Below, in pieces: positions 15,736 through 21,700 of a stretch of DNA of 64,000 bases. Within the stretch, counting starts at the first letter, position 1; each line of letters starts with the position of its first letter. Location of the stretch: positions 2,304,001-2,368,000 of the forward strand of contig CBDFMQ010000002.1 in assembly GCA_965249725.1 (NCBI GenBank), read 5' to 3'. This DNA comes from Longimicrobiales bacterium (lineage in GTDB: Bacteria > Gemmatimonadota > Gemmatimonadetes > Longimicrobiales > Gaopeijiaceae). Position numbers: made by a program.

Positions 15736-18700
15736 GCTGAGCTACCGGCTCTGGGCGTAAAACTAGCCGCTAGCCGGTAGAAGCTCCACGGTCTGGTGGT
15801 TCGTCTGCAGAGGGGGCGGACCAGCGCCGTGAACTCCTCGGCGGACTCACGTATTCAGCCTGAGACCAGAGTTACCGGCCGACCCGCCCTTTCGAGCGCG
15901 GTTGCGGAGCCACTTCAGTCCCTCCATTTCAATGCGTATCGAGACCTACCGCGCTTGCCCCGTCCTCGAGAGGGACCCTGCACCCGTTGGGCCTCATCGC
16001 CCGCGAGGAGAGAACTAGTGATCGAGACCGACGACCAAAGGCGAGCTCCAGGTGCCGGTACCCAGGAGACGGCGGTCCAGGACCGATATGCCTCTGCGGC
16101 CCAGGCCCAGGCGCCCGCCCTGTGTTGTCCCGTGGACTACGATCCTCAGTACCTGGAGATCATCCCGGAAGAGGTTATCGAACGGGACTACGGTTGTGGT
16201 GACCCGAGCCGTTACCTCAAGACGGGAGAGACGGTTCTCGACCTGGGCAGCGGTACGGGCAAAATCTGCTTCATCGCGTCGCAGGTCGTTGGAGAGACGG
16301 GCAAGGTCATCGGTGTCGACATGACACCGGAGATGCTCGAGGTGGCCCGCCGAAACGCCCCGGTCGTCGCCGAGCGAACCGGCTACGCCAACGTGGAGTT
16401 TCGACGCGGCCGCATCCAGGATCTGTCGCTCGATCTGGATCTCCTGGAGGAGCGCCTCAGTGATCATCCCGTGTCGACCACTGAAGGTTGGCTAGAGCTC
16501 GAACGGACGACCTCGGATCTTCGGCTCCTGGAGCCGCTGGTTCACGACGAATCGGTGGACGTCGTCGTCTCGAATTGCGTTCTGAACCTCGTCGAGACGG
16601 AGCAGAAGCAGAATCTCTTCCGTGAGATCTACCGTGTCCTCAAGAACGGCGGACGGGCGATCATCTCGGACATCGTCTCGGACGAAGCGGTGCCCGAGGA
16701 GCTCCAGATGGACTCCGAGTTGTGGAGCGGATGTGTTTCGGGAGCCCTCACCGAGGAAGGCTTCCTCGCGGCGTTCGAAGAGGTCGGGTTCCATGGAGTC
16801 CGTGTGCTTGAGCGCCAGGCCGAGCCTTGGCAGACCGTGAACGGGATCGAGTTTCGCTCGGTGACGGTCGAGGCCTTCAAGGGCAAGGAAGGGCCCTGTT
16901 GGGAGCGCGGGCAGGCCGTGATCTATAGAGGCCCGTTCAAAGAAGTACTCGACGACGACGGTCACCGTATGGAGCGCGGTAAGCGCTACGCGGTGTGCGA
17001 CAAGACGTTTCGTATCTACGAACAGGAGCCGTATGGGGAGCTCTTCGACTTCGTGGAGCCTCTCGTGGAGATTCCCCTGGAGGAGGCGGAGCCCTTCGAT
17101 TGCACCCGGACCACGACCCGACATCCCAGGGAGTCCAAGGGCTTGGACTACGATGTGACCACGGACCCTCAGGGAGTGTGCTGTGAACCGGGCGACTGCT
17201 GCTGACCCGCCGCCTGGTGGTCGCGTGAGCCCGGGCACGGACGGCGGGGTGACCCCGACTCCGACCGCTAGTGAGTCCCCGGCGGTCGCCCTTCGATCGC
17301 TCGACACGCTGTGGTTCCAGGTGGGTGGTACGCTCTGCAACCTGACGTGCACGCACTGCTTCATCTCCTGCTCGCCTACGAACCACACCCATGAATTCCT
17401 GAGCCTGGAGACTGTCCGATCCTACCTCGACGAGGCGGTGCCGCTGGGTGTGAAGGAGTACTACTTCACGGGTGGAGAGCCCTTCATCAACCGCGATATG
17501 GAGGCCATCCTCGCCGAGACGCTCAAGGTCGGACCGGCCACGGTGCTGACGAACGGCCTACTCCTCGATCGTGACCGATGCGCTCGGTTGGCGAGGCTGG
17601 CCGAGGAGTCCGACTACTCGCTCGACCTTCGCATCTCGCTGGATGGGTACACCGCCGAGACCAACGACCCCATCCGGGGAGAAGGCACGTTCGAGCGGAT
17701 CCTCGACGGAGCACGCCGCGCGGCCGAGGCGGGGCTGAACCCGGTTCTCACCGTGACGGAGGTCCACGAGGGCAACGGGACCGACCAAGGTCGCACGAGG
17801 TTCCTGGAGCTGTTGACCGCGAGAGGGATTACTCCCCCGCGGTTGAAGGTTCTGCCGGTCTTCCAACTCGGTGCCGAAGCCGAGCGCTCGGGCTGCTACG
17901 AGAGTTGGCAGAGGCTCTCGGCAACGGACGCCCCCGAGGACGGATGGGATCACCTGCAATGTTCTTCTTCCCGCATGGTCACCGACCAGGGCGTCTGGGT
18001 GTGTCCGATCCTGGTCAACGAGCCAACAGGGCGCATGGGGGAGCGGCTCGCCGACACCTTTGGCGACTACCCACTCAGCCACCAGGCGTGCTGGACCTGC
18101 CATGTGTACGAGGTCAGCTGCAGGACATGAGCAATCGTCACAAGGGCATGGCTACCTGGGGGGAGCGCCTGGTACCCCTCCCGGAGTTCCGAGCGGCGGC
18201 GGCCCAGTCGGGTCGACCTCTCTCCGAGATGGATCGACAGTCTGCGGTCGAGAAGTACTTGAGGCCGTTGAATGATGCGACTCCCGTCGAGGGTCCCTAC
18301 GACCGGATTGCCGTATTCGGAGGCGTCTACAACAACCGGTTCGGCCTCGAGGCCGTTCTCGACGACGCTCGCCGACGCGGGGCGGAGGAGTTGTACTGCC
18401 TTGGAGATCTGGGGGGGTTCGGTCCGAATCCGGAGGCGGTGTGGCCGCTCCTGGAGAGTGCCGGCGTCCGGGGGATCCAGGGGAACTACGAGCAGTCCTT
18501 GGCCTCGGACCGTGGGGACTGCAACTGCGGATACACGGACCCACGGGACAACCACTTTGCGGCTCTCTCGTATGGCTACACCGAGCGTCACTGCTCGTCG
18601 GGATATAGGGAGTACATGGACGGCCTCCCCTCCCGGCGCCGCGTCCGCGTCGGCGATCGGGAATTGCTCCTGGTCCACGGATCTCCGAGACGGGTCAACG

Positions 18701-21700
18701 AGTTCCTGTTCTCGTCCACCTCGTCCACGCCGTTCCTTGAGGTGTTGTGCGACGAAAACCGTTGCGACGGGATTCTGTGCACGCACACCGGTCTGCACTG
18801 GCACCGTCGTCTCCCGTCCGGTCGCGACGTGGTCAACGTTGGTGTCATCGGACGGCCGGCCAACGACGGCAAGACCAACGTGTGGTACACGATCATCTCG
18901 GCGACCGACAACGGGATCGACGTCGAATTGGTTCCGCTCGTATACGACCACGAGTCCTTGGCCGCCGAGATGCGCAGAGAAGACCTTCCCGAGGAGTTCG
19001 TCGAGACGATCCTCACCGGATGGTGGACGACGTGCCTGGAGATCCTCCCCGCCAAGGAGCGGGCGGCCTCGCGGTTCTAGGGCACACAACGATGACGAAG
19101 CCCCAACCTCGCATCGCTATTGTCGGCGCCGGCCCCGTAGGGCTCGAAGCTGCGCTCGCCGCGGCGGAAGCGGGCTACCCGTTCAATGTGTACGAAGCGG
19201 CACCCGGAGCTGCGGGACATGTCCGCGAATGGGGCCACGTAAGGCTCTTCACTCCCTGGGAACTCAACGTCTCCGCGCGGATGAGGCGGGCTCTCGAACA
19301 AGCCGGCACAGAGGTGCCCGCGGGAGCTGCGTGCCCCTCTGGGACCGAACTGGTGGAGAACGTGCTCGCGCCGGTCAGTGCCCTTCCCTTGTTGGCCGAA
19401 CACATCCACTACGGGGTTCGAGTTCACCGCCTCGGGCGCACCGGACTTCTCAAGCACGAGGAGATCGGCACAGGTCGACGAGCCCAGCACGCCTTCCGAC
19501 TTCTGCTCCGGGACGATTCAGGTCGTGAGTGGACCGAGGAAGCCGATGTGGTTCTCGACTGCAGCGGAAACCCCGAGCCGAACGCTCTGGGCGACGGCGG
19601 CATTCCCGCGCCAGGAGAGGCGCTAGCATCTCAGATCATCAGCCACGACATGCCGGATGTGTCGGATGCCCCAGAGGCTTGGGCCGACCGCACCACGCTA
19701 GTTGTGGGCGGAGGACACTCCGCGACCACGGCCGTGGCGGAGCTCGTCGAGCTCGCCGGCGAACGGACGGGGATCGAGGTCATCTGGGCTCTGCGGGACG
19801 CGACCCCGTCTTCGGATCCTGACGATCCGCTGACCCAACGCGCTGCCCTCTTGGACAAGGCCGCTGAGCTATCCGCCGATCCACCATCCTCCCTCCGCGT
19901 GCTCGTGGGGGTCGTTGTGGACGCCCTGACGCTCCAAGGCGGCGACAACGCGGAATCGGCGACCCCTCATCGAGCCCGGGTCGATCTCCGTCACAAGGAC
20001 GGAACGGTGGAGGCCGTGGAAGCCGACCGTATCTTGGCACTCACCGGGAAGGTCGGGGACCACATGCTCTACCGGCAGCTCCAGGTGCACGAGTGCTGGG
20101 CGACGCAGGGTCCCATGAAGCTCGCTGCGGCACTACTCGCGCAGAGTGGCGATAGCGGTGACTGCCTCGACCAGACCGGTCTCGGTGCGGCGACACTCGT
20201 CAACCCAGAGCCGGGCCTGTTCATTCTGGGAATCAAGTCCTACGGACGACGGAGCGACTTCCTCATGCGGGTAGGTTGGGAGCAGGTGGACGAGGTCTTC
20301 GGATTGCTGGCCGAGGGCTAGTAGCACAAAACGGCCCGCCCCACCAAAGGGACGGGCCGTCTGCATTCCCAGGCTGAGATCAGCTTCCCGTCTGGATGAC
20401 CAGTCGAGGGGCGAAGCTGAAGTCGCCCACGGCGCCTGCACCTTCCTTCGAGAAGAACACGATGCTTCCGTCCTTCTGACCGGCCACCTCGAGCACCCAC
20501 CGGGTGCGACCCTTCTTCAGGTCCTTGGTGACGTCGAAGCTCACCGTACCCGTCAGGTCGTTCATGATCTTCACACGATCGGTCCTCTTACCGCGCTTCT
20601 TGGCACCTTGCCATCTGTCCTTCTTGGCGCAGTCGCCCTTGTTGTTCGAGATGTCCTGGTCGGCAGAGCATCGCCACGTGGCGCCCGCATCGGTGCCCCT
20701 GAACTGCTCTGCTTCGGGGCCCGTGTTGATGCCATTGCCCTCGACGAAGTCGCTCTTCAGGTGATGGATGTCCGCTTTGACACCCTTGTTCTTCCAGCCA
20801 GTCGATCCATAGGTGGGATCGATCGTGAAGACGACCTGGGCTCCGGTCACCGTCGAGAAGTCGAGGTCAGCGACATCGAAGGCCACCAATACGTCCTGGT
20901 CCTTCTGAAGCTCCAGGCGTGGGTTGGCACCCTCGTTGGTGTGGCGATTGTCTGGGGCCTGAACCGTCTTCCCCTTCTTGTTGCTCTTTTTGCTCTTGTT
21001 GCTCTTCTTGCTGCCCCCGCTCTTCGCGCTCTTCCCGCTCTTTCCACTCTTCCCGCTCTTCCCGCTCTTGGCGCTCTTGTCGCTCTTTCCGCTCTTGTCC
21101 TTGCGCAGGAAGGTGTCCTTTACGCCGATGTCCACGGGCGGCGGTGGGTCGTCACTCGGCTCGACGAAGGTGTCGAGGCCGTTGAGTCCACCCGTGATGC
21201 TCGCGTCGAGAGTGAGGTTCTGAATGCGCACCTCACCGCTGGACGGGTTGATGCGGTATACCTCTTGGAGGCCGCGCCCACGAGTGGCATAGAACCGCCC
21301 GTCCGGGAGAATGCCCAACCCGTCGAAACCGAAGTCGAGAACCTGCCCATTCAAGCGGAGTTGGACGTGGGCAGACCCCGCCCCGGTCACCGGGTCGATC
21401 TTGAAGATCCGCGGGAACTGATCGTTGCTCTCGATCCCCCAGAGCTGGCCCGTCTCCGGGTCCAAGGAGAGTCCACCGTTGCCGACCACCAGGTTGTCGA
21501 AGGTCCCGAACGTGCCCTTCCGAGCGGCCAAGCCCGTAGCCAGATCGATCTTGACCAAACCACCATCTCTGATCACACGCTCGTTGATGAACTCGCTGCC
21601 CAGCAGCAAGCCGTCGGTGCCGAACTGCAGATCGGACAGATACTGGATGCCCGTGTTGCCGATGTGAGCGGTGATCTGGCCTGTGCCGGAATCCAGCTGG

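Follow-up and report, generated by a model that had tools for sequence, protein, structure and literature searches.

The window analysed here, a 64,000-nucleotide stretch of a Longimicrobiales genome, carries a four-gene operon whose open reading frames all lie on one strand and encode, in order, a long-type ArsM, a radical SAM enzyme (rSAM), a metallophosphoesterase (MPE) and a flavoprotein, with intergenic gaps of 19, -4 and 11 nt. The operon and its flanks comprise the following features.

15679..15751, minus strand: tRNA-Lys(TTT), divergent, 266 nt upstream of the operon
16018..17205, plus strand: long-type arsenite methyltransferase ArsM, 395 aa, GTG start with GAGGAG upstream
17225..18130, plus strand: radical SAM enzyme (rSAM), 301 aa, the proposed ArsS stand-in
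18127..19080, plus strand: calcineurin-fold metallophosphoesterase (MPE), 317 aa, ATGA overlap with the rSAM gene
19092..20321, plus strand: FAD/NAD(P)H flavoprotein, 409 aa, with relatives in arsR-X-arsK operons
20330..20361, no strand assigned: GC-rich hairpin after the last operon stop and before the convergent downstream gene

A four-gene arsenic operon had been reported at this site by the first-pass annotation, and its reading frames, gene order and coordinates are confirmed. The hairpin (-24.7 kcal/mol; z -4.0; 2 of 200 shuffles equally good) is the probable terminator of the operon and is missing from the output of a consensus scan; a promoter scan returned 0 sites, and no RNA holder was listed. 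The tRNA gene is a possible insertion site, and the operon does not stand out as foreign by its GC content. Neither arsR nor an efflux gene is present among the four genes. In the genome, which is 95.8% complete, none of five matches to the ArsS model TIGR04167 lies above cut-off, in keeping with the reported absence of ArsS, and no TIGR04169 AhpD-like protein was found. The TIGR04282/TIGR04283 gene also noted earlier is a single 430-aa reading frame (G000:C3:570560-571819) in which both models score above cut-off; the arsenosugar role of these transferases is taken from the NCBI model names.

The ArsM protein features C36/C37, C60, C187 and C239, an insert within the SAM domain and a Cys-rich tail. 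Its four As-binding Cys positions are invariant or shared with an annotated arsenite methyltransferase, its best PDB matches are arsenic methyltransferases (E 2e-35), and it shares 59% identity with the ArsM encoded in an ArsS cassette (locus L356), in which ArsS stands alongside the same long ArsM type. The earlier score of 364 bits to the arsinothricin ArsM model NF040538 was recovered (364.1 bits, below the cut-off of 500), but it is uninformative on arsinothricin, since the long ArsM of a true ArsS cassette scores 358.

The rSAM belongs to the radical SAM superfamily by its PF04055 match (79.5 bits), its CxxxCxxC motif (C38, C42 and C45) and its partial TIM barrel. A further Cys (C49) follows this motif, five more (C246, C260, C289, C292 and C299) populate a C-terminal part that is SPASM/twitch-like, and a GGEP motif is present. 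The predicted model (pLDDT 94) matches SPASM/twitch enzymes, with SkfB (Z 22.2; rmsd 3.1 over 241) and BlsE at the top, and no structure of ArsS or ArsL is among the fold matches listed. The enzyme had been placed outside both of these families, and this placement holds. Its score on TIGR04167 is 52.7 bits against a cut-off of 300, as previously reported to within a bit, and the best E value for this model among 36 clade members is 2.6e-22. The DUF3641 domain (PF12345), on which ArsS scores 179.9, has no match in the rSAM; the ArsS C-terminal HMM scores no higher than 0.6 bits on 30 clade rows, and there is no cross-scoring between the C-terminal HMMs. The RCCLKC C-terminal motif characteristic of ArsL (10.1101/2024.02.01.577332) occurs in 0 of 107 scored clade proteins, and no ArsL model is among the best 25 listed profile matches. 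Like ArsL of the arsQML arsinothricin cluster, the rSAM adjoins a long ArsM, but it is shorter, no ArsQ was seen, and it is linked to glycosyltransferases. Among the matches listed, no curated family lies above cut-off; the best-scoring, the Rv1681-family model NF049973, covers residues 37-202 only at 107.6 bits, far below its cut-off of 380, and that family lacks the five-Cys tail shared by the clade and ArsS. The ESM Atlas returned generic clusters only. No description of the clade was found in the literature covered, which left most subscription papers outside its scope; Xue 2019 and Cheng 2021 may include it.

Although the clade and ArsS are only about 20% identical, they correspond over their whole length. 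An hhalign comparison joins them end to end (probability 99.3; 271 columns) with the five C-terminal Cys in register, and these Cys are present in 107/107 scored clade proteins and 18/18 scored ArsS, albeit with different spacing. Both are of about 300 aa with an N-terminal CxxxCxxC, both have SkfB and BlsE as top folds, and both share cassette partners. They differ in that the clade bears GGEP where ArsS bears GGAP, carries the additional C49 (kept in 105 of 107), and is partnered by the MPE and flavoprotein, often without ArsM, rather than by the TIGR04169 AhpD-like protein; the ArsS cassette comprises ArsM, TIGR04282/4283, DUF547, VTT, MerA-like and TIGR04169 proteins. Viewed from ArsS in HMM comparisons, the clade is the best non-self group (151, with its own alphaproteobacterial-type branch at 129), ahead of seven other groups (96 or less); viewed from the clade, long fusions (272), an Rv1681-like protein (206) and Ahb-type enzymes (188) all score above ArsS (138). 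Three of four trees group ArsS with the clade (96 SH-aLRT; 98/97 under a mixture model; 99), the latter two with L210/L211 and other rows excluded, whereas they stay apart in the full 75-row careful tree (joined in 22% of bootstrap trees), which carries a long-branch warning. A topology excluding ArsS from the clade is not rejected (p-AU 0.057), and the Rv1681-like protein branches beside the clade in the mixture-model tree. The best reading of these sequence comparisons is that the clade represents a divergent relative of ArsS, its nearest among the groups tested, and not an unrelated family, and it most likely catalyzes the same reaction. Of the earlier proposal of a third arsenic-acting family, the link to arsenic stands, and the independence is probably overstated; a "third" family is in any case ill-defined, as there is a further ArsS stand-in, of about 830 aa, in which an rSAM is fused to ArsM.

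The MPE is 30-34% identical to homologues linked to arsR, arsM or acr3. Its sequence presents GVY in place of DxH and THTG in place of GHTH, an extra GWWxxC303 and an N-terminal extension of about 55 aa. G(V/I)Y occurs in 100/100 scored MPEs and the last His is replaced by Gly in 95/100, whereas DIH and GHTH are retained in 4/4 scored ars-operon homologues. DxH and GHxH are presumably the binuclear metal ligands of the Car1-type phosphoesterase fold, and the MPE is therefore predicted to lack one metal site of the pair. Its likeness to Car1, formerly drawn from the CxC motif, now has an alignment behind it: C132-x-C134 falls in register with C74/C76 of the Car1-like protein of a Paraclostridium arsR-MPE-arsM operon, a CxC described in PMC12124457. 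Compared through such Car1-like homologues rather than the Car1 sequence itself, the MPE shares with the Car1 arsenate reductase (Rufibacter) and Paraclostridium Orf1 the calcineurin fold, GNY(D/E) and the CxC pair, but has no DxH, has lost the final His of GHTH and adds the GWWxxC tail.

The flavoprotein is 27-36% identical over 90% of its length to flavoproteins of arsR-X-arsK operons and has no sequence relative in the PDB. This operon type we take to be arsRVK, with X an ArsV-type methylarsenite oxidase. The WGHV and KSYG motifs and C358 are common to both groups, whereas C335 (HEC) is specific to the subfamily of this operon, which lacks the Cys-rich C-terminal tail and sits in a biosynthetic rather than a resistance context.

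The distribution of the clade provides a further tie to arsenosugars. Close members (E<1e-70) occur in 46 of 251 genomes of the window's phylum, all 46 of which hold TIGR04283 and none ArsS; ArsS occurs in 21 of the 251, 18 of them with TIGR04283. These genomes are kin, the 46 falling in seven families. None of 165 phylum genomes lacking TIGR04283 has an rSAM match at E<=1e-20. Set apart before the genomes were counted were 19 weak matches: 15 long open frames (the five examined are rSAM-ArsM fusions), three shorter ones (the one examined is Rv1681-like) and one of the alphaproteobacterial type. Within the window's family (37 genomes), rSAM match and transferase are both present in 29 and both missing in eight, often with the genes more than 1 Mb apart. 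The 50 genomes searched behind the 80 closest loci gave TIGR04283 in 49 and ArsS in none, and among 31 genomes of a second phylum, seven hold a full-length clade member, all with TIGR04283 and without ArsS, while ArsS occurs in four of the seven other TIGR04283 genomes. ArsM was not found by two queries in 25 of the 46 clade genomes, whereas it is present in 20/21 ArsS genomes and 198/251 overall. A close MPE is absent from 18 of the 46, and thus is not obligatory. The 46 divide, in few independent lineages, into 21 with MPE but no ArsM, 14 with ArsM but no MPE, seven with both and four with neither. No operon-type MPE or flavoprotein was found in any of the 21 genomes that carry ArsS.

The number of related stretches, 424, was reproduced; the partner counts given for 92 loci shifted on recounting over the 80 loci kept, to 80 with MPE, 67 with flavoprotein, 36 with ArsM and 32 with a DUF2064-type transferase. 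Three operon-linked DUF2064 proteins scanned all score below the TIGR04282 cut-off (72-98 against 134 bits). The rSAM is fused to each of its three neighbours: to the flavoprotein (P0008, P0026), to ArsM (P0015) and to the MPE (P0117, L424). A single locus, L161, unites rSAM, MPE, a symporter, both transferases, and MerA-like and VTT genes. Many related loci carry a symporter, a porin or an ABC importer of phosphonate or Pst-like type; the Pst-like importer is found within 13-14 of 80 related operons. Cassette genes were found at only eight of 80 metagenome loci that belong to the alphaproteobacterial-type branch, MPE at 16 and ArsM at one. Taken together, TIGR04283 co-occurrence, ArsS exclusion, the fusions and the ars-operon relatives of the partners uphold the arsenic link drawn earlier. 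Matches on viral contigs were weak and partial (at most 37%). Selenocysteine was considered and rejected for the clade, the sole flagged TGA (G245) being upstream of the start.

The operon probably encodes the first half of the arsenosugar (arsenoriboside) pathway, with an undescribed rSAM clade in place of ArsS. Arsenate or methylarsenate would be taken up by the cell, and the CxC pair of the MPE would reduce As(V) to As(III), perhaps with a preference for methylated arsenate conferred by loss of one metal site, while the flavoprotein would recycle the MPE disulfide or set the As(III)/As(V) state. ArsM would then methylate to dimethylarsenite, a substrate that MPE and flavoprotein may also provide from methylarsenate. 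The rSAM would cleave SAM and transfer the resulting 5'-deoxyadenosyl radical onto dimethylarsenite, forming 5'-deoxy-5'-dimethylarsinoyladenosine (DDMAA) in the manner of ArsS, whose chemistry is described in PMC13598754 and 10.64898/2026.04.29.721666. The unlinked locus of MerA-like, VTT-DUF547 and TIGR04283-TIGR04282 genes would convert DDMAA to an arsenosugar or arsenosugar lipid. More tentatively, the rSAM-MPE-flavoprotein core might constitute a salvage route to arsenoribosides from environmental methylarsenate without ArsM. Dimethylarsenate would then be reduced by a calcineurin-fold enzyme with a single metal, which the flavoprotein would recycle; the product would pass to the rSAM clade, which may be the lineage that gave rise to ArsS and might fix the arsenic in a C-As compound that is not DDMAA. 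The MPE and ArsM pattern in the 46 genomes fits such a route.

Other readings differ chiefly in the reaction assigned to the rSAM. A doubtful variant keeps the pathway but has the enzyme adenosylate monomethyl, inorganic or thio arsenic, or form another C-As product, in which case a variant arsenosugar would result. The low identity to ArsS, the clade's own motifs (C49, GGEP, no DUF3641), the dedicated MPE and flavoprotein missing from ArsS genomes and the frequent lack of ArsM are consistent with it, but the downstream transferases and long ArsM are common to ArsS cassettes, and redundant enzymes would be expected to exclude each other, as the clade and ArsS do. It is improbable that the operon is instead catabolic, imported organoarsenicals being reduced and their C-As bond broken by the rSAM by analogy with the C-P lyase PhnJ: importers and missing ArsM would suit this role, but PstB also flanks the L356 ArsS cassette, the ArsM fusion and the glycosyltransferase tie indicate synthesis, and the fold matches are SPASM/twitch enzymes.

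Equally improbable is a cassette whose product is an analogue with phosphorus or selenium, or some other glycoconjugate, with ArsM as a passenger. A Roseomonas locus in which phosphonate ABC genes occur but ArsM is not annotated within 8 kb, the adjacency of TIGR04283 to an Rv1680/Rv1681-like pair at L160, and the lack of arsR or an efflux gene among the four point that way; against it, the nearest annotated relatives of all three partners are in ars operons, the rSAM is found fused to ArsM, and ArsM keeps its four As-binding Cys positions. Least plausible, and very unlikely, is an arsinothricin-like pathway in which the rSAM, like ArsL, moves an aminocarboxypropyl group to arsenic; such a pathway would account for the best model of ArsM but not for its sub-threshold score, the comparable score of an ArsS-linked ArsM, or the lack of the RCCLKC-type tail and of a listed ArsL model.

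Two C-As-bond-forming radical SAM enzymes, ArsS and ArsL, are named in the literature covered. If the clade is indeed an ArsS stand-in, surveys with the ArsS model overlook most producers in some phyla (46 clade genomes against 21 with ArsS among the 251 here), which suggests that arsenosugar-making bacteria are far more numerous than current gene labels indicate. The rSAM has at least 7,465 protein matches at E<=1e-20, not all of them clade members, and these bear generic labels only. The clade would account for genomes with arsenosugar transferases but without ArsS, its short and, by prediction, well-folding enzyme would be suited to the study of radical arsenic chemistry, and the MPE, as a possible methylarsenate reductase, bears on a testable gap in how arsenic cycles through sea and soil. 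Separately, a divergent type III polyketide synthase, absent from the window, accompanies 48 of the 80 related loci and is treated as synteny.

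Four tightly packed plus-strand genes form the operon, which is flanked by a divergent tRNA-Lys and a hairpin:

16018-17205, +, methyltransferase (ArsM), 395 aa
17225-18130, +, radical SAM (rSAM) protein, 301 aa
18127-19080, +, metallophosphoesterase (MPE), 317 aa
19092-20321, +, flavoprotein, 409 aa

The scores given in the first-pass annotation were reproduced on re-run. From 424 related stretches the best 80 were kept for locus counts. Every one of these loci contains the MPE; 67 have the flavoprotein, 36 have ArsM, 32 have a DUF2064-type gene, and 13-14 carry a Pst-like ABC importer, which directly follows ArsM in 13. 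The record titles of the closest loci are Longimicrobiales and Thermoanaerobaculia, and fusions of the rSAM to each of its neighbours occur in some proteins. A type III polyketide synthase and an acyl-AMP ligase lie divergent from the operon in 48 of the 80 loci, in Thermoanaerobaculia (e.g. L077:3834-4877), and a link to arsenolipids is conceivable. Several related assemblies have operon genes interrupted by stops or frameshifts (L017:6752-7936, L018, L030, L057), which are probably assembly errors.

The distribution of this rSAM family (the clade) was set against that of ArsS, the 5'-deoxy-5'-dimethylarsinoyladenosine (DDMAA) synthase of arsenosugar biosynthesis, by searching one set of 251 phylum genomes with the rSAM, TIGR04167 (ArsS) and TIGR04283 (the cassette glycosyltransferase) and cross-tabulating the results. 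At E<=1e-20 the rSAM matched 65 genomes, of which 46 gave a strong match (E<1e-70) and 19 a weak one, and all 65 fall among the 86 that carry TIGR04283. ArsS occurs in 21 genomes, 18 of them with TIGR04283; it was found in none of the 46 genomes with a strong rSAM match and in one of the 19 with a weak match. Four TIGR04283 genomes have neither, one of which has a long ArsM-bearing frame. Within the window's family (37 genomes), rSAM and TIGR04283 are both present in 29 and both missing from 8, and are often unlinked. Fifty of the 80 closest-locus genomes, hand-picked for longer contigs, yielded TIGR04283 in 49 and ArsS in none. In a second phylum (31 genomes, around G266), all seven genomes with a full-length clade member carry TIGR04283 and none carries ArsS; the other seven TIGR04283 genomes comprise four with ArsS, one whose 1242-aa frame gives a partial match and two with neither, and ArsS was found in two of the four tested among the 17 transferase-negative genomes. 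Because the genomes are kin, these counts are reported without a P value; the tallies include genomes flagged as unpublished (G095, G155, G180, G055, G298), and no conclusion rests on these alone. The exchange of rSAM for ArsS is visible in single loci: L161 holds the rSAM, MPE, a symporter, both transferases (TIGR04283 and TIGR04282), MerA-like and VTT genes, whereas L356 holds a long ArsM (59% identical to that of the window) with ArsS, both transferases and TIGR04169, the AhpD-like protein of ArsS cassettes. On a Roseomonas plasmid, a distant clade member is accompanied by genes for TIGR04282, DUF547, an MPE and a phosphonate ABC system. Burkholderia accounts for 49 of 54 ArsS-bearing plasmid records, with B. 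glumae predominating among those listed.

Away from the operon, on contig C3 of the source genome (G000), genes for a MerA-like oxidoreductase, a VTT-DUF547 fusion and a TIGR04283-TIGR04282 fusion are consecutive, and the MerA-like, VTT, DUF547 and TIGR04283/TIGR04282 gene types adjoin annotated arsS in cultured strains. We know of no experiment on the role of these transferases, whose arsenosugar role is a database name. Neither ArsS above the TIGR04167 cut-off nor a TIGR04169 gene was found in the source genome, which has a second, ordinary ArsM. Its MerA-like cassette gene is apparently frameshifted in a G run (L095 about 12357-13760, G000:C3). An ArsM-like gene of this genome contains a TGA (G000:C3:2229108-2229704) and a Paraclostridium ArsM has one in frame at a cysteine position (L349:5773-6531); both are probable selenoproteins. 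At one locus only (L157:4141-5561), a methylthioadenosine phosphorylase and an adenine phosphoribosyltransferase adjoin a cassette, and they are candidates for stripping adenine from DDMAA.

Assignment of the window rSAM to ArsS itself was ruled out by the TIGR04167 model and by DUF3641. Comparison of the sequences nonetheless makes common ancestry of the clade and ArsS likely. Aligned end to end, the two profiles place five C-terminal cysteines in register; these are present in 107/107 scored clade proteins and 18/18 scored ArsS, at differing spacing. Among nine groups, the best profile partner of ArsS is the clade, the clade's own best partners are groups other than ArsS, and the C-terminal HMMs of the two do not cross-score. 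That pattern would fit an origin of ArsS as a rapidly evolving offshoot, but also a likeness that is generic to SPASM/twitch enzymes. All trees used the wider outgroup set. A quick tree joined the two (support 96); a careful 75-row tree left them unresolved, with ArsS meeting another long branch. They were joined in a 37-row mixture-model tree from which the long-branch pair was left out (98/97) and in a 39-row tree (99), where excluding ArsS has a p-AU of 0.057. SkfB and BlsE are the best fold matches for the predicted models of both. An rSAM(SPASM)-ArsM fusion of ~830 aa stands beside TIGR04283 in about 16 of the 251 phylum genomes, almost always without ArsS (fusion loci L157:8651-11182, L158:6008-8428, L159, L164, L174, L361:11428-15675); it branches beside the clade (96/88) and is a candidate further stand-in for ArsS. 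An Rv1681-like rSAM with an Rv1680-like binding protein (L160:7369-10955) is separated from a TIGR04283 gene by about 3 kb, with similar spacing in two more genomes, and some alphaproteobacterial-type cassettes hold a second, weakly TrsS/Tes-like rSAM of 459 aa (L227:6547-7926; L406).

The partner enzymes also resemble known arsenic proteins. ArsM retains the cysteine positions of arsenic methyltransferases, and the MPE has its nearest annotated relatives in Paraclostridium, Pontibacter and Adhaeribacter, within ars operons. The Paraclostridium relative matches the arsR-MPE-arsM layout and C74/C76 numbering given for a protein (Orf1) like the arsenate reductase Car1 (PMC12124457). These two cysteines align with C132/C134 of the window MPE. 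Of the clade-linked MPEs at 107 loci examined, 100 were scored: all 100 have G(V/I)Y in place of DxH, and in 95 the final His of GHTH is Gly, unlike the ars-operon homologues, in which both motifs are intact (4/4 scored, 8 examined). Under the ligand scheme that we assume, these changes remove one of two metals, a loss that may leave room for a methylated substrate. Plasmid relatives of the flavoprotein include genes that sit between arsR and arsK in both rhizobial records examined; in the two other records examined the neighbours are an ArsR-type gene on one side and an MFS gene on the other. ArsV, to which the flavoprotein may correspond by this operon context, is described as a flavin methylarsenite oxidase (10.1101/2021.08.12.456183). 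A close MPE occurs in 28 of the 251 phylum genomes, all within the 46 strong-rSAM genomes, and the flavoprotein is also present in 28 of the 251; since 25 genomes are common to both sets though the genes are mostly unlinked, the two act as a module.

According to four sources (PMC13598754, 10.64898/2026.04.29.721666, PMC8552651, PMC12159101), ArsS forms DDMAA by adding a 5'-deoxyadenosyl radical to dimethylarsenite, and the clade rSAM would add the radical in the same manner. That the clade performs the ArsS reaction is probable, and is the simplest account given its exclusion with ArsS, the shared partners and the likely kinship; we accordingly favour an ArsS-like role for proteins that are yet no members of TIGR04167. 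The clade would represent a variant of a known pathway, and the ArsS-like reading is directly testable. No description of it was found in literature outside the original publications on ArsS, Car1 and ArsV with their supplementary material; further papers drawn on are PMC10080717, PMC11719878 and PMC10456119.

Evidence on substrate supply runs against this reading. Two ArsM queries (E<=1e-25 and 1e-50) found no match in 25 of the 46 strong-rSAM genomes and a match in 20 of the 21 ArsS genomes, and the long-ArsM query matched 27 of the 50 closest-locus genomes. The 46 divide into 21 with MPE only, 14 with ArsM only, seven with both and four with neither, a split that reflects either two routes supplying dimethylarsenite or a wrongly proposed substrate. 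A different arsenic reaction would suit the latter and is unlikely, set beside the exclusion with ArsS. The alphaproteobacterial-type branch is mostly free-standing: 80 metagenome loci of this branch hold cassette genes in 8, MPE in 16, ArsM in 1 and ArsS in none, and 38 loci of at least 8 kb hold cassette genes in 5 and MPE in 12. Catabolism and action on an element other than arsenic are each improbable. An arsinothricin-like reaction is the most doubtful, and the C-terminal RCCLKC motif of ArsL (10.1101/2024.02.01.577332) is absent from the 107 scored clade proteins.

The window rSAM is ~70% identical to Thermoanaerobaculia proteins versus 43-50% to most same-phylum copies, its monophyly with three same-phylum copies is rejected (p-AU 1e-8), and the source genome has a single copy. 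Together these suggest that a native copy may have been replaced by an operon from another lineage, which brought its ArsM along.

Beyond the operon, the window encodes two proteins that look secreted (20380-23448, minus strand, and 23632-27045); their low-complexity tracts are of repeated KSGKS type and PE-repeat type. An ORF that resembles ribosomal protein S16 and ends in a very long tail of acidic repeats (29463-30347) is followed by putative rimM/trmD/rplS-like genes.
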